A DNA stretch of 51,331 nucleotides from an uncultured Acidimicrobiaceae bacterium (GTDB lineage: Bacteria > Actinomycetota > Acidimicrobiia > Spongiisociales > UBA5794). Location of the stretch: contig CAZCBO010000001.1 of NCBI GenBank assembly GCA_964496825.1, positions 1-51,331 of the forward strand. The letters are read 5' to 3'. Under the pieces are notes generated by a model that saw only the letters and a list, made by a program, of their open reading frames with translations, was not told where the DNA came from and ran no database searches. Each line of letters begins with the position of its first letter. Position 1 is the first letter of the stretch. Positions 10,222 to 25,943 of the stretch are shown here, in pieces. A program made the position numbers and the translations under genes.

Positions 10222-11265
10222 TCACGGCTGGAGGATGATCTTCAGCGCCCCGCCGCGCCGTTCGTTGAAGGTGTCGATCGCCTCGGCGAAGTCCTCGAGC
10301 GGGAAGTGGTGGGTGATGAGCTCGCCCACCCTGATCTGGCCCCCGACGACCAGCGGCGTCACGGTGACCATCTCTCCGGCCGAGGCGCGGGCGCCGACGA
10401 GCTCGAACTCGTAGAGGACGAGCTCCTGGAGCGACAGCTTGACGTCCTCGACGGGGATCCCGACCGAAGCGATCCGGCCGCCCTTGCGCACGATCTCGAG
10501 GCTCCACTGATACGTCTGCGGGACGCCGGCGCACTCGAGGACGACATCGGCGCCCCGGCCTCCGGTCGCCTCACGGATCGCGGTGACCGGATCGTCCTTC
10601 GTGTAGTCGACCACGTCGCTGCCCATGGCGGCGGCCTTGGCCAACCGCTCGCCGCGGCCGACCACGATCACCGTGCCGGCACCGCGGGCTCTTGCGGACT
10701 CCGCCACCAGCAGCCCGATCGGGCCGGGCCCGAGGACGACCACGGTGTCGCCGGGCTTGTTGCCCCCGCGGTTGGCGGTGTGGAGCGCGATCGACGCCGG
10801 GTCGAGCAGCGCCCCCTCGTCGAACGAGAGCTCGTCGGGCAGCGGGAAGACCGCCTTGGCGCCGTGCACCACGTACTCGGCGAAGGCCCCCTGCCAGTTG
10901 TGCCCGTACTGGCGGTGCAGTCCGAAGATCCCGTAGTTCTCGCAGACGTTGTAATGCCCCTCGACGCACTTCTGGCAATAGCCACAGGCGTTGTGAGACG
11001 TGCCGGCGACCCGGTCGCCGGCCTCCCAGCCGAGGAGCTCGGCCCCGGGGCCGACCTCGACGATCTCGCCCGCCCACTCGTGGCCCGGGATGAAGGGCCA
11101 GCCCGGCGGCCAGAACCCCGGGTAATCACCACGCAGCAGGTGGGCGTCGGTGCCACAGATCGTCACCGACTTCACGCGGCACTTCAACTCGTGCGGACCG
11201 GGTTCGGGCTCCTCGACGGTCTCGACCGAGTAGTGGTTGGGCTCGGTGACGACGACGGCCTGCAT
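10222..11265 (-). CDS. Zinc-dependent alcohol/polyol dehydrogenase (MDR family)
   Basis: Has ICGTDAH, GHEWAGEIVEVG, the structural-zinc cysteines CGYCQKCVEGHYNVC, and the Rossmann motif VLGPGPIG. Confidence 0.9.
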   Translation of the reverse strand: MQAVVVTEPNHYSVETVEEPEPGPHELKCRVKSVTICGTDAHLLRGDYPGFWPPGWPFIPGHEWAGEIVEVGPGAELLGWEAGDRVAGTSHNACGYCQKCVEGHYNVCENYGIFGLHRQYGHNWQGAFAEYVVHGAKAVFPLPDELSFDEGALLDPASIALHTANRGGNKPGDTVVVLGPGPIGLLVAESARARGAGTVIVVGRGERLAKAAAMGSDVVDYTKDDPVTAIREATGGRGADVVLECAGVPQTYQWSLEIVRKGGRIASVGIPVEDVKLSLQELVLYEFELVGARASAGEMVTVTPLVVGGQIRVGELITHHFPLEDFAEAIDTFNERRGGALKIILQP

Positions 11266-11278
11266 CAGTCCTCCGATC

Positions 11279-12166
11279 TCAGATCACTGCCAGCGGGTCC
11301 ACCATCGACCCGGTCGCCCCGCGGATCTTGAGGGGCAGGGCGACGAACAAGAACTCGTACACCTTCTCTGCGGCGATCTCCTCGAGATAGGCGCTCTCCA
11401 TGAGGTAGATCCCGTTCTCGATGAGCAGACGGGTGTGCACCGGCTGCGGGTTGGCCGGGCTACCCCGGTCGGGGGCCGGCTGCACCTCGTAGGTCTCGGT
11501 GTCGGTGCCGGTGGCGACCACGCCGCGCTCGAGCAGCCAGTCGGCGGCCGAAAGGTCGGGGCCGGCCGTCTTGTGCTGGTTCATCTGCTCCTCGTCGGGC
11601 CAGAAGGCGAGATACCCGGTTCGGATCAGCACCACGTCCCACTGCCGGACCTCGACCCCGGCCCAGTCGGCGATCGCCTGCATCTCGTCGGCGTCGATCG
11701 GCGAGGAAGCCGGCAGCGCCTCGACCCCGCGGAAACCGGCGGCGTCGAGCAGTACGCCCCTGGTGAAGAACGGCGGCAACTTCTCCGCATCGCCGAGGGT
11801 CGGACCCCAGTCGGTGAGGTGCTCGGCGGTGTTGCCCCCGCCGTACCAGTGGTTGTCCTCGCCCACCGTCATGTGGGCGAGGGCGTCGAAATGGGTGCCG
11901 GAGTGCGAGGTCGCGCTGACGACCTCGGCCATGTAGCCGAGCCCGGCGTCGTTGGGCGGGCCCCAGGGTTGGGCGCCCTCGGCGCGGATCCCCGGTGGCG
12001 TCCGGTACGACGTCACCTGGAAGGGCGGATGGCCGGGGAACAGCGGCATGCCGGGGAAGCGGGACGCCGCCAGCGAGAAGAACCGCCCTTCCTTCACGAG
12101 CTGGGCGGCTTCGACGATCTTGGTGGTTGGAATGTCCCCTGCGGGACCGACTTCTACGTACGTCAT
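11279..12166 (-). CDS. Cyclase-family protein (kynurenine formamidase / isatin hydrolase-like metal hydrolase)
   Basis: HSGTHFDALAH is the HxGTHxDxPxH-type motif of putative cyclases. ATG at 12166 overlaps the upstream stop (ATGA). Confidence 0.75.
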   Translation of the reverse strand: MTYVEVGPAGDIPTTKIVEAAQLVKEGRFFSLAASRFPGMPLFPGHPPFQVTSYRTPPGIRAEGAQPWGPPNDAGLGYMAEVVSATSHSGTHFDALAHMTVGEDNHWYGGGNTAEHLTDWGPTLGDAEKLPPFFTRGVLLDAAGFRGVEALPASSPIDADEMQAIADWAGVEVRQWDVVLIRTGYLAFWPDEEQMNQHKTAGPDLSAADWLLERGVVATGTDTETYEVQPAPDRGSPANPQPVHTRLLIENGIYLMESAYLEEIAAEKVYEFLFVALPLKIRGATGSMVDPLAVI

Positions 12167-14403
12167 TGCTCCTCCACGAGTGCCCGCCACACCCGCTCGG
12201 GGGTGAGCGGAAGATCTCTGATCACCACGCCGGTCGCCTCCCTGACTGCGGCGCCCACGGCGGGAGCGGTAGAGAGCAGAGCACCCTCGCTGATGCCCTT
12301 CACGCCGTAGGGGCCGGGGCCGTCGGCGTTCTCGACGCTGTCGCTCTTCATCTCCAGGGGCAGATCCATGCTGGTGGGGATCCGGTAATCGATGGCGCCG
12401 AGGTTCCTGATCCGTCCCGATTCGTCGAGGATGATGTGCTCCATCAGCGAGTGGCCGAGACCCATGACGGCGGCGCCCTCGTCCTGCCCCCGTACCTGGT
12501 TCGGGTTCAGCGATCGTCCCACGTCACCAACCGTGACGTGCTTGATCAGCGTCGTGTACCCGGTCTCGCGGTCGACCTCGGCCTCGATGGCGGTGGTGTT
12601 GAATTCGAAGAACGCGGCGTCACCGCCGAGCGGATGGTTCGGATCGCCCTCCTTGCGCGCCTCGCCGTGGCCGAAGAGCTCACCGCCGAGGCGGCCGAAG
12701 CCGGCCTTGAGCACGTCGAGCAGTGGGATCTCCTCGTCCTGCAGGTGTACCACGCCGCGCTCCACCGAGATCTCGCCCTCGTCGACGTCGCGGACTCGCG
12801 CCGCGATGGCCCGCACCTGGCGCTGGATGTCCTGGCAGGCACGCAACACCGCGTTGCCCATGAGTACCGAGGATCGGCTCGCCGACGTCTGCTGGTCGTA
12901 GGGCACCACCGCGGTGTCGCCCATCACCACCGAGATCTTCTCCAGCGGCACGCCGAGCTCCTCGTTGGCGATCTGGGCGAAGATCGTGCGGGCACCCTGG
13001 CCCATGTCGGAGGTGCCCGAGTAGACGAGGGCGCTGCCGTCGACGAGCAGCCTGACCGTCGCATAGGAGAGGCCGGTGGTCGGACCCGACTTGAGGCCAA
13101 GAGCAATCCCGCGACCGTGCCCTTCTGGGAGCGGCGTGTCCCAGCCGATCTCCTTGGCGGCCAGTTGCACCGTCTGGGCCCAATCGCCGTCGGCGCGCTC
13201 GCCGGGCATGAACGCCTCGTTGAACTCGGCGAGGTTGTGCAGCCGGATCTGGAGCCGGTCGATGCCGAGGGCCAATGCCCCCTCGTCGATGTTGGACTCA
13301 CGCGCCCAGGTGATCTGGGGGATCCCGAAGCCGCGCATCGCCGTCGATGGGGTCGTGTGGGAGAGGAGATTCCTCGCCAGGATGCGGACCGCCGGGGTGC
13401 TGTACGGCCCGGCCGACAGGTAGCTCGACTTGCTCACGACCCGGTCGGCGATGTCGACATACGCCCCGCACAGGAAGTTGTTCTCGAAGTCCTGGAAGGT
13501 GATCGTGCCGTCCTCGAGGAACCCGGTCCGCACCGTGACCTCCACCGCGGCCCGGCGCACCGCCTGGAACGTCTCGTCGAGGGTCAGGATGAGCCGGCAG
13601 GGACGCCCGGTCATCAACGCCAGGAACGCCACGAGCGGCTCGTACTTGGCGTGTTGCTTCCCGCCGAACCCGCCACCGGGGTCGGGGGCGATGATCCGCA
13701 CCTTGGACAACGGCAGGTCCAGGATCCCCGCCATGATTCGTTGCAGGAAGTAGGGATGCTGGATCGAGCTCCAGATGGCGATGCCGTCGCCGTCCGGTGC
13801 CGCCATGAAGCCGTGGGGCTCGATGGCGAAGTGCGTCACCATCGGGAACTCGTAGGTGTTCTCGATCACGAGGTCGGCCGACTGGGCATCGACGTCGCCC
13901 CACCCGAAGCGGTGCTCTCGCCGGATGTTCGTCTCGGCGAGGGGGTCGTCGGGGCGGAGGGACGGGTCCTGCACCAGCGGTGATGCCGGGTCGAGGGCCT
14001 CCGCCACGGTGAAGACCCCTCCCTCGAGTGTTTCGTATTCGACCTTCACCAGCCGCGAGGCCGCCTCGGCGGCGTCCTTCGTCTCGGCGGCCACTGCCGC
14101 CACCGGCTCGCCGTGATACTTGACCTCGCCGTCGGCGAGCACCGGGCGGTCCTTGAAGATGGGACCGAACCGGGGCACCGGCTGGGGCAACCGGTCGGGG
14201 GTCAGCACGAGGTGGACCCCGGGGACGGCCTCGGCCGCGGAGGTATCGATGGACACGATCCTGGCCCTGGCGACGTCGAGCGTGACGAGCCTGACCTCGA
14301 GCGCGTCGGGGAGGTGGATGTCGGCCACGTACTTCAGGCCACCGGTGACGCGCCCCACCCCGCCGATCCGGTGCGGAGAGGCGCCAACGCCGTCGACGGT
14401 CAT
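12163..14403 (-). CDS. Molybdopterin-binding hydroxylase large subunit (xanthine dehydrogenase / aldehyde oxidase family)
   Basis: ATG at 14403 overlaps the small-subunit stop. Has GGGFGGK, MRGFG and GQGARTIFAQIA motifs. I saw no CO-dehydrogenase AYxCSFR-type loop. Confidence 0.9.
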   Translation of the reverse strand: MTVDGVGASPHRIGGVGRVTGGLKYVADIHLPDALEVRLVTLDVARARIVSIDTSAAEAVPGVHLVLTPDRLPQPVPRFGPIFKDRPVLADGEVKYHGEPVAAVAAETKDAAEAASRLVKVEYETLEGGVFTVAEALDPASPLVQDPSLRPDDPLAETNIRREHRFGWGDVDAQSADLVIENTYEFPMVTHFAIEPHGFMAAPDGDGIAIWSSIQHPYFLQRIMAGILDLPLSKVRIIAPDPGGGFGGKQHAKYEPLVAFLALMTGRPCRLILTLDETFQAVRRAAVEVTVRTGFLEDGTITFQDFENNFLCGAYVDIADRVVSKSSYLSAGPYSTPAVRILARNLLSHTTPSTAMRGFGIPQITWARESNIDEGALALGIDRLQIRLHNLAEFNEAFMPGERADGDWAQTVQLAAKEIGWDTPLPEGHGRGIALGLKSGPTTGLSYATVRLLVDGSALVYSGTSDMGQGARTIFAQIANEELGVPLEKISVVMGDTAVVPYDQQTSASRSSVLMGNAVLRACQDIQRQVRAIAARVRDVDEGEISVERGVVHLQDEEIPLLDVLKAGFGRLGGELFGHGEARKEGDPNHPLGGDAAFFEFNTTAIEAEVDRETGYTTLIKHVTVGDVGRSLNPNQVRGQDEGAAVMGLGHSLMEHIILDESGRIRNLGAIDYRIPTSMDLPLEMKSDSVENADGPGPYGVKGISEGALLSTAPAVGAAVREATGVVIRDLPLTPERVWRALVEEQ

Positions 14404-14879
14404 GATGCCAACTCCTCGGCAGCGGCCAGGACCGCCTCCGTGATCTGCTCGTACCCGGCGCATCGGCAGAGGTTCCCTGCCAGGCCTTCGTGCACGTCCT
14501 CGACGGTGGGGTGGGGGTTTCGTTGGAGGAGCGCCGTCGCCGAGATCAGCTGGCCGGGAATACAGAAGCCACACTGGGCGGCGCCCTCGTCGAGGAATGC
14601 CTCCTGGAGCGCGCTCAGCTCACCGTGGAGGGCCAATCCTTCGACCGTGGTCACCTCTGCGCCATCGACCTCGACGGCCAGCATGAGGCACGAGTTCATC
14701 GACCGACCGTCGACGAGCACGGTGCAGGTCCCGCACTCCCCGACGAGGCAGCATTCCTTGGTGCCGGTGAGGTCGAGGTCGTCGCGCAGCACCTCGAGCA
14801 GGCTGTGGTGCACCGCCACGTCGAAGGAGCGCAGGGTGCCGTTGATCCTGACCTCGATGGGCATGGTCTCGATGTTCAT
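14400..14879 (-). CDS. (2Fe-2S)-binding small subunit of molybdenum hydroxylase
   Basis: Has the CLVGECGTCTV and CGFCIPG...CRCAGY cysteine clusters. There are ATGA overlaps on both sides. Confidence 0.92.
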   Translation of the reverse strand: MNIETMPIEVRINGTLRSFDVAVHHSLLEVLRDDLDLTGTKECCLVGECGTCTVLVDGRSMNSCLMLAVEVDGAEVTTVEGLALHGELSALQEAFLDEGAAQCGFCIPGQLISATALLQRNPHPTVEDVHEGLAGNLCRCAGYEQITEAVLAAAEELAS

Positions 14880-15730
14880 GACAGTCGCTCGATCGCCGTG
14901 CGCAGCGCTCGCGCTCCGAGAACCCGGAGCATGGCCAGACGATATGGGGGGCTGGCCCGCAACGAGGTCGGTGAAGGACTCGCCTGTTCGAACATGCGGT
15001 CGAGCACCTCGGCCTTGGCATCGTCGGGTGCCCCTGGGTCGGCGAGGATGCCGGTGTCGTCGACGACCAGGAAGGCCCTTGGCCCAACGCTGCCGAAGGC
15101 GATCCGCGTGGTCCCCGCGGTGTCGACACCGACACACATCGTGACCGATGCCAGGTCGGTGCCGCGGCGCCGCACCAGGCGGGTGTAGGCGGCGCCCATC
15201 GGCGGATCGGGCGTCGGGATCTCGATCGCCGTGACCAGCTCGCCCCGCTCGAGTGCCGTCGTGCCCGGTCCGACGACGAAGTCGTCGATCGGCACCCGCC
15301 GGGCGCCCTCGGGTCCGGCGACGACGACCACGGCGTCGTAGACGAGCAGCGCCGGAGTGGTATCGGCGGCGGGCGAGCCGTTGCAGATGTTGCCGGTGAG
15401 CGTGGCCCGGTCCCTGATCTGCACCGAGCCGACCACCTCGGCCGCCTCGACGAGGGCGGGGAACACCTCGCCGACACGCAGATCCTCTTCGATGTCGGTC
15501 ATCACGACCCCGGCGGTGAACGTGAACACGCCGTCCTTCTCCGTGATCGCCGGCTCGAGCTCGGGGATGCGCTTGATGTCGATCACGAGCCGGGGCTCGA
15601 AGTCGCCGTCGCGCAGGTTGATCAGCAGGTCGGTGCCCCCGGCGAGCAGCTTGGCGTCGGGCCCGTACTCGTCGAGGAGCGCCACCGCCTCGTCGACGGA
15701 GGACGGTCGAGCGTAGGAGAAGGGCAGCAT
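14876..15730 (-). CDS. FAD-binding medium subunit of molybdenum hydroxylase
   Basis: Has MLPFSYARPSSVDEAVALL, LLAGGTDL and TLTGNICNGSPAAD, which are CoxM/XdhB-type FAD-binding motifs. Confidence 0.9.
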   Translation of the reverse strand: MLPFSYARPSSVDEAVALLDEYGPDAKLLAGGTDLLINLRDGDFEPRLVIDIKRIPELEPAITEKDGVFTFTAGVVMTDIEEDLRVGEVFPALVEAAEVVGSVQIRDRATLTGNICNGSPAADTTPALLVYDAVVVVAGPEGARRVPIDDFVVGPGTTALERGELVTAIEIPTPDPPMGAAYTRLVRRRGTDLASVTMCVGVDTAGTTRIAFGSVGPRAFLVVDDTGILADPGAPDDAKAEVLDRMFEQASPSPTSLRASPPYRLAMLRVLGARALRTAIERLS

Positions 15731-15731
15731 C

Positions 15732-16619
15732 TCAGAGCACCTTCTCGACCTCGTCGATGAGCGCCTGGGGCCCGGCGGCACGGATGAAGTAGTAGGGCCG
15801 CTGGGCGAAGTCGTCGACGAAGGCTGCCCGCTTCGCCCGAAGCTCGCTGTTGTCGATGAGCGGCATCGGCAGCCCCGGTGCCAGCAGCTCGTTGAGCAGG
15901 AAGTAGTTCTGCAGCGAGTGGAAGGTCTGGAACTGCCGCTCGAAGGGGATCATCTCGTTGGCGCTGGTGTCGAAGTTGCCGTCGATGGCGGGAACCACGA
16001 CGAGATCGACGTCGCTCACCTCGTCGTACTCCTTGATGGCCGGCAACGCCGCGTCACCCCAGAAGATCTCCACCCCGCGCTCCGGGCTCGCCTTGTCGGC
16101 CCGCTCGGTGCCCTTGGCCCGCTTCTTCAGGAAGACGGACTTGGACCCCATCACCGCCCAGCCCCGCTCGTCGGTCACGGTGGTCTCGGTCGACACCAGC
16201 AAGCCGCCGCGACGGCAGGCCTCGATCTGGGCCATGCTCTTGCCATGGTTCGACTCGCCGCCGAGGAACATCACGGTCTTGTCGTCCATCCGAACCGCCG
16301 AGGAATGGAAGGGATGCAGGCCGGTCTCCTCCATCCGGAGCGCCAGCATGGCCACGACGATCTTCTGCAGCTCCCCGGGAAACCAATCACCCTCGAGGAT
16401 CATCACGCCGTCCTCGTAGCGGATGGTCTTCTCGGGGGCGTCGCGGTCCCACGCGATATCCGCCGTTTCGAGGGTGGTCTCCGGGCTGATGTCGACCGAC
16501 GCCAGGCGATAGTCGAGGAACGTCGTGTCGACCAGGGCCTCGTCGATCGGCTCGCTGCTGTCGACATCGACGCGGATTCGGCCGGTGCCTGCGGACATCT
16601 CTTGGGTCAACTGCGGCAT
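15732..16619 (-). CDS. Hypothetical P-loop protein with HPr kinase/phosphorylase-like domain signature
   Basis: LHPFHSSAVRMDDKTVMFLGGESNHGKSMAQIEACRRGGLLVSTETTV resembles the HprK C-terminal pattern lHasaV..g.gvll.G.SG.GKS...l...G..lvsDd. The stop lies 1 nt before the FAD-subunit start. AAAGGAAG precedes the ATG at 16619. Confidence 0.5.
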   Translation of the reverse strand: MPQLTQEMSAGTGRIRVDVDSSEPIDEALVDTTFLDYRLASVDISPETTLETADIAWDRDAPEKTIRYEDGVMILEGDWFPGELQKIVVAMLALRMEETGLHPFHSSAVRMDDKTVMFLGGESNHGKSMAQIEACRRGGLLVSTETTVTDERGWAVMGSKSVFLKKRAKGTERADKASPERGVEIFWGDAALPAIKEYDEVSDVDLVVVPAIDGNFDTSANEMIPFERQFQTFHSLQNYFLLNELLAPGLPMPLIDNSELRAKRAAFVDDFAQRPYYFIRAAGPQALIDEVEKVL

Positions 16620-16698
16620 GCATCTTCCTTTCGGGGCCTGGCCGCTGTGCCCGGCGCGTCGGCGCCCGGGCCGCACCCTGGCCCGACATTTTCGCGTG

Positions 16699-17385
16699 TC
16701 AAGCGGTGGCTACGTCCTCTTCCTCTGCTCGTTCCCTGATCTCTGCGGCCTGCTCGAGGTGGTGGCGCATCACCAGCGCCGCGGCCTCGGGATCGCGGGC
16801 CTTGAGCGCCTCGAGGATCCCCTCGTGGCGCTTGGCCAGCCACATCAGGTCGACACCCGGGGCCGCCGCGGTCAGATAGGTCTGGCTGAAGGGCTCGAGC
16901 AACTGCCAGGTCCGCTCCAGCATCGCATTTCCCGATGCCGCGATGACCCTGGCGTGGAACTCGGCGTCCTTGTAGGCCAGCGGCATCGCATCGCCGTCGG
17001 CGGCCAGGTCGAGCATCTCGTCGTACAGCTTCTCCAGCTCGGCGATACCGTCCTCGCTGATGTTGGTCGCCGCCTGCTCGGCGGCGTACGCCTCGAGGAC
17101 ACCGCGCACCTCGACCGCCTCGATCAGCTCCCTGCGGTCGGGTTTGCGTACCCAGGCGCCGCGATGCGGGCGCATCTCGACCAGCCCGAGGCTGGTCAGC
17201 GCCCGCAGCGCCTCACGAACCGGCGCCTGGGAGATCCCCAGCTCCCTGGCGACCCGGGTCTCGACGATACGAGACCCGGGTTCCAAGTCTCCCTCCACGA
17301 TGCGCTCCAACAGGCGATCCTTCACCTGGTCGCTGAGCACGCTCCGCTCGACGAGCGGATCGGACGGTCGGGAGTCGGTGGTCAT
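16699..17385 (-). CDS. GntR-family transcriptional regulator, FadR (FCD) subfamily
   Basis: Has a winged HTH (ETRVARELGISQAPVREALRALTSLGLVEM) followed by an all-helical FCD-like C-terminal domain. The start overlaps the upstream stop by 1 nt. Confidence 0.9.
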   Translation of the reverse strand: MTTDSRPSDPLVERSVLSDQVKDRLLERIVEGDLEPGSRIVETRVARELGISQAPVREALRALTSLGLVEMRPHRGAWVRKPDRRELIEAVEVRGVLEAYAAEQAATNISEDGIAELEKLYDEMLDLAADGDAMPLAYKDAEFHARVIAASGNAMLERTWQLLEPFSQTYLTAAAPGVDLMWLAKRHEGILEALKARDPEAAALVMRHHLEQAAEIRERAEEEDVATA

Positions 17386-19118
17386 CAGCCGCTGAGCACC
17401 TCCACGGTTCCCGCCGACCCGTTCACCCGGATCCGGTCACCGCTGGTGATCTCCTTGGTTGCCACCGAGGATCCGATGACCGCCGGGATGCCGAACTCAC
17501 GGGCCATCACCGCCGGGTGCGACACCGTGCCGCCGGCGTCGGTGACGATGCCGCTGATCACGCTGAACAGCGGCGTCCAGGCCGGATTCGTCATCTGGCA
17601 CACCAGGATGTCGCCGGGACGGACCTGGTCGAACTCGTCGACCGACAGCACCACCTTGGCGGTGCCCTCGATGACACCCGGTGAGGCAGCGATGCCGGTG
17701 ACGGTCGGTCCCTCCTCGTGCTCCATGTAGAGCCGGTCGGGGAAGCCCCACAGGCCCAGGTACGGGAACTCGAGCTGCGACTCGGTCGCCGTCCCGATCC
17801 AGTCCTTGGGCTTGACCAGCTCCGACTCGGCGCGCTCGGCGCGGCGCTGCTTGACGATGCTCCTGGCGTCGAAGTTCTCGAGATCACCCATCAGATAGCG
17901 AAGCTCGTTGTACTTCAGGAACATGACGTCGTCGGGCTCGTCGAGCACGCCCTCCTCGACCAGCTTCTTGCCGATCGCCATCAGCACCACGCGCACGTGG
18001 GCGTTGGTGCCCTGGTCGATGTAGAAGTGGTGGTCGGGGGTCAGCGGGGCCATCTTCAGATTGACCTCGTTGGCCGCCCGCATCTTCTCGAGCGCCTCGC
18101 CTTCGAGCCCTTCGAGCAGCTCCTTCGAGGCGGCCTCGATGTCGTCGGCGAGCTCCTTCTTCGCCGACGGGTAGTCGTAGTCCGACTCGATGTAGCCCTT
18201 CAGCACGTCCAGCACCGGCACCGGATCTTCGAACCGGCTCGGGAAGATGAACTCGTGGCTCCACACCGCATGCCAGCCGAACTCGCGCTGCCAGGCGGCG
18301 ATCCGCTCCTCGAGGAACTTCTGTCCCTCCGGGGTGCCCTGGAGCCCCTTGAGGATCTCACGACCCGTGTCGCTGGAGAACGCCTCGGACAGCACCTTGT
18401 CCTTCTTCACTTCCTCCTTCATCTCCCAGAGGAGATGCAGCGAGTCCCAGTTGCGGTCGGCCGCCGAGTTCTGGAGTCGACCCAGCAGCACTTCGTCGAC
18501 CTCGCCCCGCACCTCTTCCATCACGGCGCGCAGGTTGAGCGTCGAGGACAGCTGGGCGAAGTTGAGCATCCAGTGGATCTTCCAGTGCCGATCGTGGATG
18601 TCCATCGCATCCTCGAGGATCGTCGCCCACTCCATCAGCGAGATCTCGTCCTCCTGGTCGATCTTCGACTCCAGGTAGGCCAGATTGCGCTGCATCTCGG
18701 GCACGAGCCGGTCGCGCCACCAGTCGGCGAAGTTCAACCCGTAGGTCGGGAGCACCGCGTTCAGGTAGTTGCCGATCTTCCCGGCGTACTCCGGATCGTC
18801 CTTGGGGACCCGCGGGGTGTAGAGGTTGCCGTATTCCATCGCCTCGATGCGGAACCCCGGATCCGCAGGGACCGCCGCCGTGTACAGGTAGCCGTTGACG
18901 TTCTTGGCGATCCAGTCGGCGGCAAACGGCGTGCCGAAGCGCCGGAACATGTGATCGCAGGTCAGCCACCAACCCCCGATGTCGAAGTACATCGGCGAGA
19001 GCGGCTGCGGACAGTGCAGGTCGTCGTAGACCCAGAACAGGCTCCTCTCGGCGTCGGACTCCCATTCGATGGGGAAGCTCTCATCGCCGTGGAACTCCTT
19101 GATGATCGCATCAGTCAC
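17385..19118 (-). CDS. PEP-utilising-enzyme family protein: about 470-aa N-terminal region plus C-terminal swivelling phosphohistidine domain, no ATP-grasp
   Basis: GTG at 19118 is preceded by AAGGAGGAA. The C-terminus is TGIAASPGVIEGTAKVV..PGDILVCQMTNPAWTPLF..IVTDAGGTVSHPAVMAREFGIPAVIG, the PEP-utilizers mobile domain with its catalytic His. The N-terminal part shows no PPDK_N/ATP-grasp motifs. Confidence 0.8.
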   Translation of the reverse strand: MTDAIIKEFHGDESFPIEWESDAERSLFWVYDDLHCPQPLSPMYFDIGGWWLTCDHMFRRFGTPFAADWIAKNVNGYLYTAAVPADPGFRIEAMEYGNLYTPRVPKDDPEYAGKIGNYLNAVLPTYGLNFADWWRDRLVPEMQRNLAYLESKIDQEDEISLMEWATILEDAMDIHDRHWKIHWMLNFAQLSSTLNLRAVMEEVRGEVDEVLLGRLQNSAADRNWDSLHLLWEMKEEVKKDKVLSEAFSSDTGREILKGLQGTPEGQKFLEERIAAWQREFGWHAVWSHEFIFPSRFEDPVPVLDVLKGYIESDYDYPSAKKELADDIEAASKELLEGLEGEALEKMRAANEVNLKMAPLTPDHHFYIDQGTNAHVRVVLMAIGKKLVEEGVLDEPDDVMFLKYNELRYLMGDLENFDARSIVKQRRAERAESELVKPKDWIGTATESQLEFPYLGLWGFPDRLYMEHEEGPTVTGIAASPGVIEGTAKVVLSVDEFDQVRPGDILVCQMTNPAWTPLFSVISGIVTDAGGTVSHPAVMAREFGIPAVIGSSVATKEITSGDRIRVNGSAGTVEVLSG

Positions 19119-19286
19119 GGATTCCTCCTTGCCTTTCGCTGCCGACGTGCTCCGGACATGACGGATTGCGGGGCACCGTCCTCGGATCGGGGTAGCCGCG
19201 ACGGACGACCGGACCGAGCAGGACGAGGTGGTTCCCACTCAGGGTCGCACTGGGGAATCGCGTCATTCCAGAGCTACCTCTCGATT

Positions 19287-19303
19287 GACTATCATAGATA
19301 GTC
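19287..19303. promoter_or_regulatory. Perfect palindrome GACTATC-ATA-GATAGTC (candidate operator)
   Basis: Read directly: 7-bp arms with a 3-nt spacer, in the 255-bp divergent region between the PEP-utilising operon and the phosphatase/PPDK-like operon. It overlaps copy 2 of the AT-rich motif by 2 nt. Confidence 0.45.
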
Positions 19304-19316
19304 GATAATCGATGAT
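19302..19316 (+). promoter_or_regulatory. AT-rich 15-nt motif TCGATAATCGATGAT, copy 2
   Basis: Identical to 1186..1200. A degenerate copy (TCGATTGACTATCAT, 10/15 matches) sits 21 nt upstream at 19281..19295. Confidence 0.6.
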
Positions 19317-19373
19317 ACGGGATCTGCGGCCGACACGTCAACTCGAACACCCCCCCGCCGTCGGGAGATCGCG

Positions 19374-20147
19374 GTGACGATCACCCTCGAGGGGGCGGTC
19401 AACTTCCGGGATCTCGGCGGATGGGCCACCGGGGACGGCCGGAGGGTCAAGGGGGGCCTGCTGTACCGTTCCGGCAGCCTGAGCGGCCTCTCCGACGCCG
19501 ACCTCGAGACGCTGGAGCGTCACGGCGTGCGCACCGTGGTCGACTTCCGCATCCCTTCCCAGATCGAGACCTTCGGCGAGGACCGGATCCCCACCGCGGC
19601 GTCGTACGTGTCGTTGCCGATGGGCGCCGGCGAGCTCAGCAAGGCCGTCCACGACGCCATGCACACCGGCCGCTTCGCCGGTCTCCCCGACATGGCGACC
19701 GTCAACCTCGCCATCCTCGTCGAGGATGGCGACAGCCTCGCCGCCTTCCTCCGGATCGCCGCCGAGCCCGGGCGCACCCCGCTCATCTTCCACTGCATCG
19801 GCGGCAAGGACCGCACCGGAGTCGCCGCCGCCGTGCTGTTGTCGCTCCTCGGCGTGCCGTGGCAGGCGGTTCGTGAGGACTACGAGCGGTCGAACGACCA
19901 GCTGGCCGAGGCGATCGACGCCGAGATCGAGGCGTGGGTTCGGGCGGCGGCGGAACGCTCAGGACGCCGACCGGAGCCCATCGACTTCGAAGCGGCGAAG
20001 CGGTTTGCCGGCGTCGACGGCACCGACCTCGACGCCGTTCGCCATCGGATGGTGGAGGACGCGGGTTCGATCGAAGCCTACGTCCGGGATCGGCTCGGAA
20101 TCGACGACGCCACCGTGGCAGGCTTGCGCGACATGCTGCTGGAATGA
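19374..20147 (+). CDS. Protein-tyrosine-phosphatase-like protein (CX5R family)
   Basis: Has the HCIGGKDRTG active-site loop (C-X5-R-T) and the N-terminus NFRDLGG, typical of the Tyr_phosphatase_3-type family. GGGAG precedes the GTG at 19374. Confidence 0.75.
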   Translation: MTITLEGAVNFRDLGGWATGDGRRVKGGLLYRSGSLSGLSDADLETLERHGVRTVVDFRIPSQIETFGEDRIPTAASYVSLPMGAGELSKAVHDAMHTGRFAGLPDMATVNLAILVEDGDSLAAFLRIAAEPGRTPLIFHCIGGKDRTGVAAAVLLSLLGVPWQAVREDYERSNDQLAEAIDAEIEAWVRAAAERSGRRPEPIDFEAAKRFAGVDGTDLDAVRHRMVEDAGSIEAYVRDRLGIDDATVAGLRDMLLE

Positions 20148-20154
20148 GCACACG

Positions 20155-22290
20155 ATGAGCCTCGTCTACCCCCTCGACCATCGCTACCACGCTCCCCTTC
20201 CCGAGATCGTCGCCATCGTCGGCGGAAAGGCGGCCAACATCGGGGTGATGGCGTCGCTCGGGTTGCCGGTGCCGCCCGGTTTCGCGGTGACGACCGAGGC
20301 CTGCCGCAGCTACCTGGACGACGCCTGGCCCGACGGACTCGATGCCGAGATCGAGGAGCAGATGGCCCGGCTCGAGGACACGGTCGGGAGACGCTTCGGC
20401 GATCCGTCCGATCCCTTGCTGGTCAGCGTCCGCTCCGGAGCCCCGGTGTCGATGCCCGGCATGATGGACACGATCCTCAACGTCGGCCTCAACGACGACA
20501 CGGCGACGGGACTCGCCGCGGTCTCGGGGGACCCGGCGTTCGTCGCCGCCTGCACCGATCGCCTGCAGAAGATGTACACCGGGATCGTCGGCGTGGCCAC
20601 CGTGCCCGCCGATCCGTGGGAGCAGCTTCGAGGAGCGATCGAGGCCGTGTTCCGCTCTTGGAACAGCGACCGGGCCCGCAGCTACCGCGAGCGCGAGGGG
20701 ATCAGCGACGATCTCGGCACCGCGGTGACGGTCCAGACCATGGTGTTCGGGAACCGCAGCGCCGATTCGGCCACGGGTGTGATCTTCACCAGGAACCCCG
20801 CCACCGGCGAGAACATCCTGTACGGCGATCTGATGTTCCAGGCCCAGGGCGAGGACGTCGTGGCCGGTACGCACCAGACCGAGCCGATCACCGTCCTCGA
20901 CGAGCGGATGCCGGAGATCGCCGCCGAGCTGCGACGCTACGCCGATCTGCTCGAGCGCCACTACGCCGATGCGTGCGACATCGAGTTCACGATCGAGGAC
21001 GGCCGTCTCTGGATGCTGCAGACGAGGATCGCCAAGCGCACACCCCAGGCGGCGCTGCGCATGGCCGTCGAGATGGCCGAGGACGACGACTTCCCCCTGT
21101 CGAAGGCGGAGGCGGTCGAGCGCGTTCGGTCCTATCTGGCCGACCCGCCGACGACGGTCGCCGACCAGAGCTCTGACGCCCCGCCGGCGGCAACCGGGTT
21201 GGCGGCATCCCCAGGGCTCGTCTCGGGCGAGATCGCCACGACGGCCGAGGCGGCGATCGCGATGGCCGAGGAGGGCAGGACGGTCATCCTGGTGCGGCGC
21301 GAGACCTCGCCGGACGACGTCCACGGTATGGCCCGTTCGGCAGGCATCCTCACCTCGACCGGTGGGTTGGCCAGCCATGCCGCAGTCGTGGCGCGCGGAT
21401 GGGGAATCCCTGCGGTCGTCGGCGCCGAGGGCGTCGTGATCGAGGACGATAGGCTCTCGATCGGGGACCGCACCCTCGGCATGGGTGACACGATCACGAT
21501 CGATGGTGCCGGCGGACGCGTCTTCATCGGTGTGGTGGCTGGGAGCGAGGCCATCGTGGCGGAGGCGGCGACGCTCCTTTCGTGGGCACGGGAGCTCGCC
21601 ATCGACATCGACGCGGCCGAGCAGGGAAGCGTGCCCGACGAGCGAGAGGAGGCGGCCATGGACGACATCGAAGCGGCGACGCCCGCCGTGGTGCGAGCGC
21701 TGCTCATCAAGGGGTTCGTGACCCCCAACGGCGTCGCCCCCGTGCTGCGGACCGGTGAGGAAGAGGCGGCCGCGATCCTGGACCGGACCACCGCCGACGG
21801 GCTCACCGAGCTCGCCGGCGCGATGTTCCAGCTGACCGACGACGGCAAGGCGCTCGGCGCCGAGTTGATGGCCGCCGACCAGGCGACCTGGGGCATCGAC
21901 AACGCCAACCGCGCCCTCGACGGCTTCCTCGGGATCGACGACCGTATGAAGCACATCGTCACGGCCTGGCAGATGCGCGAGGTCGACGGCGAGCAGGTGC
22001 TCAACGACCATACCGACGAGGCCTACGACGCCGGGGTACTCGGTGACTTCGCCGCCCTCCACGAGGACGCTCGGGCCTGGCTCGAGCCGCTGACCCAGGG
22101 GCTGCCCCGGCTCGCCGGCTACCTTTCCCGGCTCGACCACGCTGCGGCGATGACCGAGGAGGGCGATCACCGCTTCATCGCCTCACCCACCCTCGACAGC
22201 TACCACTCGGTGTGGTTCGAGCTCCACGAGGACCTGATCCGCCTGGCGGGCCGCACCCGTGAGGACGAGGTGGAGGCCGGGCGGGCCTAG
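20155..22290 (+). CDS. Pyruvate,phosphate dikinase N-terminal homologue (ATP-grasp + phosphohistidine domain) lacking the PEP/pyruvate TIM-barrel, with a different 245-aa C-terminal extension
   Basis: Motifs read: GGKAANIG, LPVPPGFAVTTEAC, LLVSVRSGAPVSMPGMMDTILNVGLND, GTAVTVQTMVFGN, FTRNPATGE, QGEDVVAG, DIEFTIEDGRLWMLQTR, and the swivel domain ASPG..VILVRRETSPDDVHGM..TSTGGLASHAAVVARGWG. No PEP-utilizers_C motifs follow. Confidence 0.85.
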   Translation: MSLVYPLDHRYHAPLPEIVAIVGGKAANIGVMASLGLPVPPGFAVTTEACRSYLDDAWPDGLDAEIEEQMARLEDTVGRRFGDPSDPLLVSVRSGAPVSMPGMMDTILNVGLNDDTATGLAAVSGDPAFVAACTDRLQKMYTGIVGVATVPADPWEQLRGAIEAVFRSWNSDRARSYREREGISDDLGTAVTVQTMVFGNRSADSATGVIFTRNPATGENILYGDLMFQAQGEDVVAGTHQTEPITVLDERMPEIAAELRRYADLLERHYADACDIEFTIEDGRLWMLQTRIAKRTPQAALRMAVEMAEDDDFPLSKAEAVERVRSYLADPPTTVADQSSDAPPAATGLAASPGLVSGEIATTAEAAIAMAEEGRTVILVRRETSPDDVHGMARSAGILTSTGGLASHAAVVARGWGIPAVVGAEGVVIEDDRLSIGDRTLGMGDTITIDGAGGRVFIGVVAGSEAIVAEAATLLSWARELAIDIDAAEQGSVPDEREEAAMDDIEAATPAVVRALLIKGFVTPNGVAPVLRTGEEEAAAILDRTTADGLTELAGAMFQLTDDGKALGAELMAADQATWGIDNANRALDGFLGIDDRMKHIVTAWQMREVDGEQVLNDHTDEAYDAGVLGDFAALHEDARAWLEPLTQGLPRLAGYLSRLDHAAAMTEEGDHRFIASPTLDSYHSVWFELHEDLIRLAGRTREDEVEAGRA

Positions 22291-22311: not shown

Positions 22312-23439
22312 TCAGGCAACGGCACCGCTCGACCGGAGCTCGGCGACCTCGTCGGCGGAGAATCCGGTCTCGGCGAGGATCTCGTCGGTGTTCGCCCCCG
22401 GCTCGGGCGCCGTGCCGGGCTCGCCGGGAGCATCGTCATCGAATCGGGGCGCCGGGGCCGGCAGCGGATGGCCGGCGTGGATGTCGAACACCCCTCGCCG
22501 CGCGTTCCCCGGGTGTGCGGGTGCCTCGTCCATGCCCAGTACCGGCGTGACACAGGCGTCGGTGCCGGCGAAGACCGACTCCCACTCGTCCCGGGTCCTG
22601 CTCGCAAAGACCTCAGCGAACCGCCGCCGCAGCTCGGGCCAGCCGCTCACATCGAGACGATCGGGCAGCTCGGCACCCGCCAGACCGAGGCCGGCGAGCA
22701 GCTCGTCGTAGAACTGGGGCTCGAGGGCACCGACCGCCATCTGCTCGTCGTCGCTGGTCCGGTAGACCGTGTAGAAGGGCGCACCGCCGTCGAGGAGATT
22801 CGAAGCCCGTGCGACGTCCCAGAGCCCGATCCCGAGCATCTCGTAGAACGGCGTCATCAGCGACGCCGCACCGTCGATCATGGCCGCCTCGACGACCCGG
22901 CCCCCGGCCCGGTCCCGATCGAGGAGCGCGGCGAGGACACCGGCCACCAGGTACAGCGATCCCCCGCCGTAGTCACCGATCAGGTTGAGCGGTGGGACCG
23001 ACCGGTCGGCGGTGCCGATGGCGTCAAGGGCCCCGGACAGCCCGATGTAGTTGATATCGTGACCGGCCATGTGCGCCAGCGGGCCGGTGCGACCCCATCC
23101 GGTCATTCGTCCATAGACGAGGCGAGCGTTGACCGTCCGGCACTCGTCGGGCCCGACCCCGAGCCGCTCGGCGACGCCGGGGCGGAACCCCTCGATGAGG
23201 GCATCGGCGCGCTCGACGAGGCGGAGCACGGTTGCCGGCCCGTCGGGATGCTTGAGATCGACGGCGATCGACCGCTTTCCCCTCCCGACGGCCCGCACCA
23301 TGACGTCGGGATACGCCCGTTCGCCGACCCGGTCGACGAGGATCACATCGGCGCCCATGCCGGCGAGGAGCATCCCGGCGAAGGGCACCGGGCCGAGTCC
23401 GGCCAGCTCGACGATCGTGACGTCGTCGAGCGGCCTCAC
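22312..23439 (-). CDS. Family III CoA-transferase (CaiB/BaiF; alpha-methylacyl-CoA racemase-like)
   Basis: Has VTIVELAGLGPVPFAGMLLAGMGADVILVDR and GHDINYIGLSGAL. The start overlaps the sbcC stop (ATGA). Confidence 0.88.
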   Translation of the reverse strand: MRPLDDVTIVELAGLGPVPFAGMLLAGMGADVILVDRVGERAYPDVMVRAVGRGKRSIAVDLKHPDGPATVLRLVERADALIEGFRPGVAERLGVGPDECRTVNARLVYGRMTGWGRTGPLAHMAGHDINYIGLSGALDAIGTADRSVPPLNLIGDYGGGSLYLVAGVLAALLDRDRAGGRVVEAAMIDGAASLMTPFYEMLGIGLWDVARASNLLDGGAPFYTVYRTSDDEQMAVGALEPQFYDELLAGLGLAGAELPDRLDVSGWPELRRRFAEVFASRTRDEWESVFAGTDACVTPVLGMDEAPAHPGNARRGVFDIHAGHPLPAPAPRFDDDAPGEPGTAPEPGANTDEILAETGFSADEVAELRSSGAVA

Positions 23440-25943
23440 CCGCTCAACACCCTGGTGTCGCCCGTCGTCGGGCTCCGGTCGAGCTCGATGAGGTCCTCGA
23501 TCCGATGCCGCAGCTCGGGCACGTGGCTCACCACCACGACCAACCGGTTCCCGTCCTCGCTGACCAGCGACTCGATGCCGCTCATGGCCAGGTCGAGGTG
23601 CTCGGGATCGAGCGTCCCGAATCCCTCGTCGAGGAAGAAGGCGTCGAGGCGTCCGCCGCCGCGCGCCACGATCTCGGCGAGCGCCAGCGCCAACGCCAGC
23701 GAGGCCAGGAACGTCTCCCCTCCCGAGAGGCTGTCGGCCTTTCGGATCGCATCCGCCGCCGTCAGATCGACGATCTCGAAGGCACCGTCCTCGGTGAACC
23801 GATAGCGGCCGTTCGTCAGCAGCTGGAAGTGCTCGCTTCCCAGCTCGGCGAGCCGTCGTCGTTCGTCGTCGAGGAGGAAGCGCACGAACCGAGCGTCGGT
23901 GAGATCGGCTGCGAGCACCTTATGGGTCTGCATCGCGGCGACGTGGGCATCGCGGCGGGCCACCTGCTCTGCCATACCCTCGAGCTGCTGCTCCGCTCTT
24001 TCCACCTCCTCACGCAAAACCGCGACCCTCGACCGCAGGCCGCCAAGCGCCTCGTCGAAGGATCCGGTCACGCCGAGCTCGTCCATGGTCGCGGCGAGGG
24101 TCTTGGCCTGGTCCTCGGCAGCCGACGTCGCCTCGTCGCGGCGCTCCGTGGCTTCGCGGACCAGCCGATCCGCCAGCGTCCGCAGGGTATCGGCCGCCTC
24201 GGCGATCGAGGCGGCGTCGTCCCCGAAGGCCGGCGCATCGGCGATGCGGGAGGCGACACCCGTCAGCGCAACCCGCAGATCGCCGAGCCGCTTTGCGGCG
24301 GCTTGCTCGGCCGCGATGGCGGCATCGTTGTCCGCAATCGCCCGGTCTCGTGCCGCCGTCGCCGCATCGAGGGCGGCGCCGGCGGCTACCAGTTCCTCGC
24401 GCATTGCGGTGAGCACCGGCTCGACCTCCTCCGACCCGAGGAGCTCGACGAGCGCGGTCCGCGTATCGGCTGCCGCCTCGGTGGCCTGGGTGATGCGGTC
24501 TTCGACCTCGGCGAGGCTGTCGGCGGCGTCGGCGGCGCGCCGCTCCGCCTCGCGCAGGGCGGTTCGCGCCGACTCGAGGGAGCCCGACGCCGTCGTGTGG
24601 GCCTCCTCGGCTTCGCTTCGGTCGCGGCGTGCCGAATCCAGCGCGGTGCGCGCCTGCTCGAGATCGATGCCGGCGGTGATGGGTGGAACGGGATCGACCG
24701 TCTGCTCGCATACCGGGCAGCGGTCTCCTTCGCGCAGCTCCCGGCGCAGGGCAGACGCCATGTCGGCGTGGGTCGCTTCGTGCAGTGACTCCTCCGCTGC
24801 TGCGAGGGATTGCGCCGTCTCCTCGGCGCGTTGCGCGGCGGTTCGTGCGTCGCGTTCGGCGAGCGTCACGCGATCGGCCTGGCCGGCTACCTCGGCGGTC
24901 GCCTGCTGCAACCGATCCCTGCTGCGCGCCAGGGCGGCGTCGGCTTCCCGAACGGCGGCATCTCGCTCGTCGCCTGCGGCCATCAGGGCGGTCGCGGCGG
25001 CGACCTGGTCGCGGATCGCCGCCGCGGCCGCCGAGCGCTCGTCGGCTTCCTTGAGCTGGTGCCGCGCCTGCTCGAGCCGCTCCGCCGTCGTCGCACGCTG
25101 CTCCGCAGCGGATCGGGCCGCGGCGAGCGTCTGCTCGAGATCGGTCTCGCTGGGAAACGCCTCGAGTGCCCCTCGCAGCTCGGACAGCTGCTTCTCGGCC
25201 GCGCTCGCCTCCTCTTCGGTGGTTGCGATCGCGGTCGTGAGCTCCTTGACCTTCGGCTCCGCCTCCTCCAGCACCGAAAGCCGGTCGGCATCGGCGGCGA
25301 GGGCGGATCTTCTCGCCTCGGTCTCCACCTCGAGCTGGGCGAGGTGCTGCACCGAGACCGTGGCCTTCTCCGCCTCGACCTCGGCTTCGCGGGCTCGTTC
25401 CTTGGCCAGGGCACGCATGCGGTCGATACGGTCGAGGCCGAAGACACCCTTGAGCACCTTGTCGCGCTCGGCGGGCGGAGCAGTGAGGAATTCTGCGAAT
25501 CGTCCCTGGGCGAGCAGGACCGAGCGGCCGAAGGCATCGAAGTCGAGCCCGAGCAGCTCGGCGATCCTGCTCGTGACGTCGGCGTCGCCGGTGATCTGCT
25601 CCAGCTTCTCGGCGCCTTCGGAGTCGTCCTTCAACCGGTAGAGGGCGTGGTCGCCTGCGCCCTTGCGCCGCAGCATCCGCTGGGCCTCCCACAGCTCGCC
25701 GTCGACCTCGAAGCGGAAGGCGACCGCTCCGTGGTCGGCGCGCTGGTGAATGAGGGCCTTGGTGTTGCGGCCCAGCGATGCCGTACGCCCGTAGAGCGCA
25801 AAGGCGATGGCGTCGAGGATGGTCGACTTGCCGCTGCCGTTCGGGCCGACGATGCCGACCAGGCGCCGGTCGCGAAAGTCGAAGCCGGCTTCGTCGCCGA
25901 AGTAGGAGCGGAAGTTCCGCAGCCTGAGGTCAACCGGGCGCAC
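23436..25943 (-). CDS. sbcC: SbcC/Rad50-family ATPase (835 aa)
   Basis: Has Walker A GPNGSGKST, a long Ala/Glu/Arg coiled coil with a CPVC zinc hook, the signature LSGGETF, and Walker B FFLDEGFGTLD. The GTG start is at 25943. Confidence 0.9.
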   Translation of the reverse strand: MRPVDLRLRNFRSYFGDEAGFDFRDRRLVGIVGPNGSGKSTILDAIAFALYGRTASLGRNTKALIHQRADHGAVAFRFEVDGELWEAQRMLRRKGAGDHALYRLKDDSEGAEKLEQITGDADVTSRIAELLGLDFDAFGRSVLLAQGRFAEFLTAPPAERDKVLKGVFGLDRIDRMRALAKERAREAEVEAEKATVSVQHLAQLEVETEARRSALAADADRLSVLEEAEPKVKELTTAIATTEEEASAAEKQLSELRGALEAFPSETDLEQTLAAARSAAEQRATTAERLEQARHQLKEADERSAAAAAIRDQVAAATALMAAGDERDAAVREADAALARSRDRLQQATAEVAGQADRVTLAERDARTAAQRAEETAQSLAAAEESLHEATHADMASALRRELREGDRCPVCEQTVDPVPPITAGIDLEQARTALDSARRDRSEAEEAHTTASGSLESARTALREAERRAADAADSLAEVEDRITQATEAAADTRTALVELLGSEEVEPVLTAMREELVAAGAALDAATAARDRAIADNDAAIAAEQAAAKRLGDLRVALTGVASRIADAPAFGDDAASIAEAADTLRTLADRLVREATERRDEATSAAEDQAKTLAATMDELGVTGSFDEALGGLRSRVAVLREEVERAEQQLEGMAEQVARRDAHVAAMQTHKVLAADLTDARFVRFLLDDERRRLAELGSEHFQLLTNGRYRFTEDGAFEIVDLTAADAIRKADSLSGGETFLASLALALALAEIVARGGGRLDAFFLDEGFGTLDPEHLDLAMSGIESLVSEDGNRLVVVVSHVPELRHRIEDLIELDRSPTTGDTRVLSG

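Follow-up and report, generated by a model that had tools for sequence, protein, structure and literature searches.

Small-molecule dikinases built from two components are an established subfamily that comprises PpsAB, CreHI, HpeHI and AcvAB (PMC12167813). In these enzymes, a ~40-kDa protein consisting only of an ATP-grasp presents ATP to a ~70-kDa protein that combines a substrate-binding domain of the rifampin phosphotransferase (RPH) type with a swivel domain, and mutation of the swivel histidine abolishes activity (PMC12167813). This larger H component is also able to move phosphate between aryl phosphates on its own, as HpeH does from 4-phosphoacetophenone to acetovanillone (PMC12167813). 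HpeH/HpeI come from Rhodococcus rhodochrous GD02, CreH/CreI from Corynebacterium glutamicum, and PpsA/PpsB form the phenylphosphate synthase of Thauera aromatica; HpeH, CreH and PpsA share ~45% pairwise identity. The closest studied precedent for the locus described here is the 3hpd cluster of Ensifer adhaerens HP1. In this cluster, orf9, encoding a pyruvate phosphate dikinase (PPDK), and orf10, encoding a phosphoenolpyruvate (PEP)-utilizing protein, are essential for the conversion of 3-hydroxypyridine to 2,5-dihydroxypyridine by the hydroxylase HpdA, a need that is unexplained, and the conservation of orf10 between phyla is unusually high (63-66% identity). In this study, we analyzed a 51,331-nucleotide stretch of DNA from an uncultured Acidimicrobiaceae bacterium (contig CAZCBO010000001.1, the window) and focused on a gene for a 577-aa protein (the target) that lies in a cluster with a molybdenum (Mo) hydroxylase. 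We consider it likely, from its sequence and its modeled fold, that the target is the H component, that is, the substrate-binding and phosphohistidine-carrier component, of an RPH-like two-component small-molecule dikinase. The parts of the target are as follows.

17385 to 19118, minus strand: target gene, 577 aa, putative H component (open reading frame (ORF) and translation, full-length homologues, Foldseek matches to RPH only)
17709 to 19118, minus strand: helical domain resembling the rifampin-binding domain of RPH, putatively substrate-binding, residues 1-470 (NCBIfam, PF27448, AlphaFold2 (AF2), Foldseek)
17388 to 17705, minus strand: PEP-utilizers mobile (swivel) domain, residues 472-577 (Pfam PF00391 and alignment with RPH 5hv2)
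17517 to 17519, minus strand: codon of the catalytic His534 (translation, invariance in both alignments)

The window has ~68% G+C. The target begins with a GTG codon preceded by a purine-rich stretch, and this start is supported because homologues of 575-583 aa, which are 64-86% identical, span the protein from its first to its last residue. The Pfam scan placed PF00391 on residues 500-570 (E 1.4e-23). The swivel motif TDAGGTVSHPAVMAREFG holds His534, and its T-D-A-G-G-T-V-S-H fits the T/SxxGGxxxH motif defined in PMC12167813. His534 was invariant in two alignments, one of 28 close relatives and the other of 11 relatives down to 24% identity. An earlier reading of the window, made from the sequence alone (the sequence-only reading), had described a 577-aa product with a C-terminal PEP-utilizers His domain and with neither an ATP-grasp nor a triosephosphate isomerase (TIM) barrel. 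Both statements hold, as no ATP-grasp family (including PPDK_N) and no TIM-barrel family matched the target in the Pfam and NCBIfam scans. A regulatory Thr/Ser such as PPDK regulatory proteins use was also sought beside His534 in both alignments; Val stands at position -2, and neither T531 nor S533 is conserved.

The sequence-only reading further held that the N-terminal ~470 aa match no known module, which has to be corrected. An NCBIfam RPH-like 'PEP synthase' model aligned with residues 153-576, and those of the prodigiosin ligases PigC and RedH aligned from residues 222-230 to 576 (E 1e-40 to 1e-44, all far under the family cutoffs), placing the target in register with the last two thirds of the 880-aa RPH-like, PigC and RedH proteins. 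RPH structures (5hv2) match residues 375-575 by sequence, and the newer Pfam family PF27448 ('Rph_4th') is precomputed on the target and its relatives. The AF2 model, built from a shallow alignment of 28 sequences, is all-helical over residues 109-432. When the PDB was searched with this model by Foldseek, the significant matches were five Listeria RPH structures only (including 5fbt, 5fbu and 5hv1; E ~1e-11, 465-478 columns). The best match was 5fbt (E 7.7e-12, 465 columns, 20% identity, TM 0.56), and the next match after these five had an E of 0.07. These figures nearly equal those published for HpeH and RPH 5FBT, which share 20% identity over 473 aa (PMC12167813). The RPH fold over 465 columns agrees with the earlier proposal that the target is the substrate-binding and His-carrier half of a split dikinase. 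The structural check suggested with that proposal came out the same way: in the AF2 model and the Foldseek search the N-terminal region is of the all-helical RPH type and not a cryptic ATP-grasp.

The first ~170 aa form a distinct and very conserved module (FxGDExFPVEW...), within which residues 1 to ~108 are strongly conserved and have no confident model. An insertion of ~30 residues (ADPGFRIEAMEYGNLYTPRVPKDDPEY...) at residues ~85-115 (window ~18770-18870) occurs only in the clade of the window and is absent from the Thermomicrobium roseum and archaeal relatives. HC...CDH residues in the N-terminus were considered as a metal site and rejected, being invariant in the close clade only and not outside it.

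RPH, PigC and RedH share homologous substrate-binding and swivel domains with the target and, presumably, its swinging-His mechanism. However, they are proteins of ~860-880 aa with a fused N-terminal ATP-grasp, and the target equals only their residues from ~320 onward; it lacks the ATP-grasp of the RPH class and reached 131 bits against the cutoff of 999 for NF041857, over residues 378-575 only. It differs likewise from PEP synthase and PPDK, since only the swivel (residues 466-572) matches and there is no TIM barrel; the scores were 106 bits for PEP synthase (cutoffs 598-740) and 33 bits for PPDK (cutoff 843). In layout the target is closer to HpeHI, CreHI, PpsAB and AcvAB, from which its sequence is apparently distant. 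Both they and the target have an RPH-type helical domain with a C-terminal T/SxxGGxxxH swivel and no regulatory Thr, the ATP-grasp lies on a separate polypeptide, and the genes belong to catabolic clusters with a phosphatase. When residues 1-470 were compared with 1.84 billion cluster representatives, 1328 matches were obtained at E <= 1e-3. Of the 150 listed, many are short fragments; the full-length relatives among them (542-609 aa, down to 33% identity) all have the same two domains and no ATP-grasp, and some of them are archaeal (Zestosphaera, Bathyarchaeia and Nitrososphaeria). No fusion of the N-domain with an ATP-grasp was found among the representative matches listed, and the sole long one, of 1123 aa (P0319), is a tandem duplication of the substrate and swivel unit with two PEP-utilizers domains.

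The proposed partner is encoded on the other strand.

20155 to 22290, plus strand: PPDK-lineage protein, 711 aa (PPDK_N and PEP-utilizers domains, PRK05878, start codon, synteny)
~20155 to 21159, plus strand: ATP-grasp of this protein
~21160 to 21639, plus strand: its swivel His domain
21640 to 22290, plus strand: its winged-helix-like module

This protein has no TIM barrel and passes the NCBIfam model PRK05878 (truncated PPDK) with 500.9 bits against a cutoff of 456. PRK05878-type proteins, of which we take Mycobacterium tuberculosis Rv1127c to be the type member, likewise consist of an ATP-grasp and a central swivel without the PEP/pyruvate TIM barrel; the window protein differs from them in its additional ~215-aa C-terminal module. 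Its own swivel motif, GGLASHAAVVARGWGIP, is essentially invariant in ~43 related loci, and this near-invariance indicates that the histidine of the PPDK-like swivel is under selection. PpsB, CreI and HpeI are ~40-kDa, ATP-grasp-only proteins with a PEP-synthase-like motif, whereas the usual partner in the present clade belongs to the PPDK lineage and carries a swivel His and a winged-helix-like domain.

To examine the conservation of the neighborhood, relatives were collected by a scan of the species representatives of the Genome Taxonomy Database, which found at least 535. The best 80 are 64-84% identical to the target, all come from metagenome-assembled genomes and represent Acidimicrobiia and other Actinomycetota, Chloroflexota/Limnocylindria, Acidobacteriota, Steroidobacteraceae, Kiloniellales and Gemmatimonadota. 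Every locus was queried with the proteins of the window; the counts given here refer to the 46 loci that extend at least 8 kb to either side of the target and to features within 10 kb of it. A Mo-hydroxylase large subunit is present in 44 of the 46, in at least six phyla, so the coupling of the target family to the Mo-hydroxylase is near-obligate; the link that the sequence-only reading drew to the downstream Mo-hydroxylase genes is strongly backed by this count and by the translationally coupled genes of the window. A PPDK-like gene occurs in 34 loci, and the C-terminal module was present in 31 of the 33 such genes that were scored automatically, the 34th (L009) being cut by the end of the locus. 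In five others, an ATP-grasp-only gene, 45-51% identical to that of T. roseum, immediately follows the target or the GntR gene. Both partner types were never found together (0/46), and seven loci had neither, even at E 0.01. Thus, a separate ATP-grasp gene lies near the target in 39 of the 46 loci, in line with the co-occurrence expected by the earlier reading.

Since the two partner types are never found together, they are suggested to be interchangeable, and this mutual exclusion is the best available evidence for the PPDK-like protein as the source of the ATP-grasp. From the synteny and the domain content, we favor, somewhat above even chances, the view that the PPDK-lineage protein supplies the ATP-grasp function for the target in the window. 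The sequence-only reading had named the same partner. Its choice agrees with the synteny, but the protein is not the bare ATP-grasp that was implied, because it has its own swivel and winged-helix-like module. Its placement of the PPDK-like gene directly across a 255-bp spacer was inaccurate, as a phosphatase gene of the same operon lies between.

The related cluster on the megaplasmid of Thermomicrobium roseum DSM 5159, a cultured bacterium, has the canonical two-component layout. It encodes a target homologue (48.5% identical), a 323-aa PPDK_N-only protein, a Mo-hydroxylase, a cyclase, GntR, a UPF0261 protein and a PEP-hydrolase-like protein. The C-terminal module of the window partner also has free-standing counterparts. 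Its ~215 aa are 39% identical (E 3e-29) to the product of a 206-aa gene on a Diaphorobacter plasmid, which is flanked by a 'PEP-utilizing enzyme' and a 506-aa truncated PPDK; the former shares 31% identity with the target's C-terminal half and the latter 43% identity with the window partner. The same trio of an RPH-like H protein, a truncated PPDK and a ~200-aa module is found on M. avium pP7a and R. pyridinivorans pA, and on R. opacus pROB02 the three parts are fused and followed by a tyrosine phosphatase gene. Among the related loci, separate ~200-aa module genes beside truncated PPDK and PEP-utilizing genes lie at L087 12899-13519, L089 8986-9591 and L090 9827-10459, in Proteobacteria and Actinobacteria. 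The joining of the module to the PPDK-like protein is therefore a fusion of the Rosetta-stone type. The start of the module weakly resembles MarR/DtxR winged helices (E 9e-4); the remaining ~130 aa have no known relative and contain conserved NDHTD and DSYHxVWFELHEDL motifs.

The target is followed on its own strand by the regulator and the enzymes of the cluster, and the phosphatase gene opens the divergent operon.

16699 to 17385, minus strand: GntR/FCD transcriptional regulator (Pfam, position kept in most loci, start codon)
15732 to 16619, minus strand: 295-aa P-loop protein resembling a mini ATP-dependent PEP carboxykinase (PEPCK) or HPr kinase (HprK), without a Pfam family (AF2, Foldseek, profile alignment)
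14876 to 15730, minus strand: flavin adenine dinucleotide (FAD) subunit, CutM/CoxM-like (Pfam, PDB alignment colinear with CutM, start codon)
14400 to 14879, minus strand: [2Fe-2S] subunit (Pfam, PDB matches, start codon)
12163 to 14403, minus strand: molybdopterin-binding large subunit (Pfam, PDB match, start codon)
11279 to 12166, minus strand: cyclase-family (PF04199) hydrolase, a distant relative of isatin hydrolase (Pfam, PDB matches, start codon)
10222 to 11265, minus strand: Zn-dependent alcohol dehydrogenase, the final gene conserved in the cluster (Pfam, conserved position)
19119 to 19373, no strand: 255-bp divergent control region (sequence, inverted-repeat search, promoter scan)
19374 to 20147, plus strand: Y_phosphatase3 (tyrosine-phosphatase-family) gene, first of the divergent operon (Pfam PF13350, E 8.3e-58)

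The minus-strand genes run in the order target, GntR/FCD, 295-aa protein, FAD, [2Fe-2S] and Mo subunits, cyclase and alcohol dehydrogenase. The start of the GntR/FCD gene overlaps the target stop codon, and several starts and stops among the cluster genes have 1 or 4 bp in common, pointing to a single minus-strand operon. A sigma-70-like promoter (TTGACG, 18-nt spacer, TATCAT; 19341 to 19312, minus strand) is oriented toward the target and overlaps two overlapping inverted repeats at 19284-19317 (ATTGACTATC/GATAGTCGAT and TATCATAGAT/ATCGATGATA), which lie in an AT-rich island and, judged from their sequence and position, may be the operator of the GntR regulator of the cluster. On the opposite side, the PPDK-like gene begins at 20155, 7 bp past the stop codon of the phosphatase gene, in the same operon. 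The pairing of a phosphatase with the PPDK-like protein recurs elsewhere, as Y_phosphatase3 in the related locus L006 and on Rhodococcus opacus pROB02 and as a low-molecular-weight phosphatase (LMWPc) instead in L002, L013, L018 and L020; the genes lie, for example, at L088 9551-10384 and L002 19224-19709. The Y_phosphatase3 protein is a candidate phosphate-removing enzyme.

The FAD subunit is without the insertion of HcrB (reductase beta subunit), which carries an extra 4Fe-4S cluster. Among solved structures, the large subunit scored 332.7 bits with 4-hydroxybenzoyl-CoA reductase alpha (1rm6_A) and 219 with quinoline 2-oxidoreductase. Known phenolic dikinases have a P450 or a carboxylase downstream, whereas a Mo-hydroxylase takes this place here. 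In this respect, the window resembles the 3hpd cluster, in which a PEP-utilizing protein and a PPDK likewise lie beside a multi-subunit Mo-hydroxylase and GntR, and the target family shows a cross-phylum conservation like that of orf10. However, nicotine dehydrogenase (Ndh) and quinoline 2-oxidoreductase (Qor) are the reported nearest relatives of the HpdA subunits, whereas that of the window's large subunit is 4-hydroxybenzoyl-CoA reductase. HpdA also has a separate SRPBCC subunit (HpdA3) and adjacent maleamate genes (hpdBCDE), whereas the window has the mini-PEPCK protein, the cyclase and the alcohol dehydrogenase. In the Pfam scan, which covered the cluster genes (10222-22290) and the larger ORFs of the window but not every ORF, no SRPBCC protein was found, and no recognised maleamate-pathway enzyme was found among the same genes. 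Because the kinship of the Mo-enzymes and the SRPBCC and maleamate neighbors differ, the window cluster, compared by descriptions and gene content, is analogous and probably not orthologous to 3hpd.

The 295-aa protein was modeled with confidence (AF2 pLDDT 86.9). In a Foldseek search of the PDB, its top 36 matches were ATP-dependent PEP carboxykinases, followed by HPr kinase, and its 3003 homologues are all annotated 'hypothetical'. By profile alignment, an unusual GGESNHGKS loop and the invariant K86 and H105 fall on the catalytic core of PEPCK, where the corresponding residues are, as we assume, the GLSGTGKT P-loop, K213 and H232 of E. coli. The gene, between those of GntR and the FAD subunit, occupies the slot of the ATP-grasp-only gene in other loci, so the protein was tried as a divergent ATP-grasp; this was rejected, since it had no BLASTP match to the T. 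roseum ATP-grasp and its model has the PEPCK/HprK P-loop fold. A role like that of the PPDK regulatory protein (PDRP) was also rejected because position -2 to His534 is Val and T531 and S533 vary. No similarity was detected between the 295-aa protein and the 304-aa and 205-aa hypothetical proteins beside the Diaphorobacter and T. roseum homologues. Many related loci have a UPF0261 gene immediately upstream of the target homologue, in some cases accompanied by a gene for a PEP-hydrolase-like TIM-barrel protein (L001 6413-7663; L002 7880-9969; L004 8607-9983; L086 4490-6593); neither gene is present in the 51-kb window. Recently, the UPF0261 family has been identified as an ATP-dependent aromatic kinase (MarK). 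The clustering of phosphotransfer proteins with phosphatases fits a pathway through phosphorylated intermediates.

Several further genes lie beyond these operons. The gene of a family III CoA-transferase (22312-23439) abuts the PPDK-like gene and is adjoined by minus-strand genes at 23436-27732, for an SbcC-like ATPase (835 aa; AAA_23/SMC_N) and then an SbcD-like calcineurin-type phosphoesterase (600-aa ORF). Genes of a branched-chain-type ABC transporter lie at ~30072-34894, and a similar set adjoins the T. roseum and L002 clusters. Adjacent DAK2/FakA-like and DegV genes (34924-37374, plus strand) resemble a fatty-acid kinase pair.

By analogy with PpsAB, CreHI, HpeHI and RPH, a scheme can be proposed for the direction in which phosphate moves, the substrate class and the sequence of events. 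ATP would be presented by the ATP-grasp protein, in the window presumably the PPDK-lineage protein co-transcribed with the phosphatase. His534 on the mobile C-terminal domain would be pyrophosphorylated or phosphorylated at the ATP-grasp, and the swivel domain would then return to the target's own helical N-terminal domain, where a hydroxyl group on the substrate, a small aromatic or N-heteroaromatic compound, would receive the phosphoryl group, with ATP ending as AMP. The phosphorylated compound would be processed by the coupled Mo-hydroxylase, the cyclase-type hydrolase and the alcohol dehydrogenase, and the phosphatase would later strip the phosphate. The most likely substrate is a hydroxylated aromatic or N-heteroaromatic compound handled by these three enzymes, as suggested by the synteny and the 3hpd precedent.

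Several points weigh against this interpretation. The functional steps assigned to the clade are drawn from comparison with other systems. The AF2 model of the target has a low overall pLDDT (61.5), and residues 27-106 are unresolved in it. The best-matching PRK08296 models ('hypothetical protein') gave 122-170 bits on the target against cutoffs of 578-730, and the top one (170 bits, cutoff 578) aligns only from residue 171 and is an uncertain proxy for kinship with HpeH, CreH and PpsA. In seven of the 46 loci, no ATP-grasp gene came to light within 10 kb when the thresholds were relaxed. The proposed partner keeps an invariant phosphohistidine domain of its own, and since the characterised PpsB, CreI and HpeI have none, its ATP-grasp might serve solely its own swivel. 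From its sequence, the winged-helix-like module would suit a regulatory role equally well as a catalytic one. The pairing of the target with the PPDK-like protein, which we infer from synteny, is thus the part that most of the following alternatives address.

It is unlikely that the target is an RPH-like phosphocarrier with a donor other than the PPDK-like protein, working either as an ATP-independent transphosphorylase from product phosphate to fresh substrate or after being charged by the mini-PEPCK/HprK-like protein or a MarK-type UPF0261 kinase. The transfer by HpeH alone from 4-phosphoacetophenone to acetovanillone speaks for such an activity, although a transphosphorylase would still require a primary source of phosphate. 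All seven loci without a nearby ATP-grasp keep the mini-PEPCK gene, which occupies the ATP-grasp-only slot and is almost mutually exclusive with that gene; on the other hand, seven loci have a PPDK-like gene and no mini-PEPCK gene, and where no ATP-grasp was seen the partner may be encoded at a distance of more than 10 kb. UPF0261 proteins, encoded directly upstream of the target in many loci, act as ATP-dependent aromatic kinases; phosphorylation of a swivel-domain His by a P-loop or UPF0261 protein, however, is not known. Rather unlikely, too, is that the PPDK-like protein is a phosphorylation-controlled regulator or sensor and the true ATP-grasp partner is encoded elsewhere in the genome. 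The resemblance of its module to winged helices, the free-standing homologues annotated as MarR-family, the RPH-like repressor PspR reported in haloarchaea and its equipment for self-phosphorylation speak for such a role. Nevertheless, the winged-helix similarity is weak and ~130 aa of the module match nothing, the cluster already has a dedicated GntR regulator, and the PPDK-like protein and ATP-grasp-only genes exclude each other over 39 loci. Moreover, the 3hpd PPDK was needed for the conversion from a plasmid in a heterologous host, with the reservation that the architecture of orf9 may differ.

The two histidine domains might instead act in series. In such a double-swivel phosphorelay, the PPDK-type His would be loaded from ATP and would pass the phosphoryl group to His534, and the target would make the aryl or heteroaryl phosphate that, in place of the free phenol, would be the true substrate of the 4-hydroxybenzoyl-CoA-reductase-like Mo-enzyme. 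To our knowledge, His-to-His transfer between two swivel domains is undescribed, and we regard this scheme as quite improbable. If it were true, the phosphate would be a leaving or activating group, for example in a CoA-independent reductive dehydroxylation or a phosphate-assisted hydroxylation, and the failure of the 3hpd Mo-hydroxylase without both kinase proteins would be explained. There is hardly any chance that the target is self-sufficient through a divergent ATP-grasp hidden in its N-terminal region. Residues 1 to ~108, highly conserved and without a confident model, would be the place for it, but they are too few for a two-lobed ATP-grasp (~340 aa in HpeI). Residues 109-432 are all-helical and superpose on the rifampin-binding domain of RPH, no PPDK_N or other ATP-grasp family was detected in the target, and the relatives keep a separate ATP-grasp gene.

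The preferred interpretation of the target as the H component of a two-component dikinase agrees in concept with the sequence-only reading, yet the concept is not new, since PpsAB, CreHI, HpeHI and AcvAB are already known from experiment. Three things are new in comparison with these systems: the clade as such, the near-obligate way in which it is coupled to a Mo-hydroxylase, and a partner that carries a second conserved phosphohistidine domain together with a winged-helix-like module. The clade occurs in at least 535 species-level genomes, mostly of Acidimicrobiia and Chloroflexota that are uncultured; it is strongly conserved between phyla (64-86% identity), and its more distant members include archaeal ones. 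Experimental testing is feasible because the cultured T. roseum DSM 5159 carries a related cluster. Phosphorylation of phenolic compounds before their degradation is a recently recognised strategy (Cre, Hpe/Acv, MarK), the reason for which is debated. Solving the function of this clade would explain why a PPDK and a PEP-utilizing protein are needed in 3-hydroxypyridine hydroxylation, and it could give a function to the widespread PPDKs without a TIM barrel (PRK05878 / Rv1127c type).

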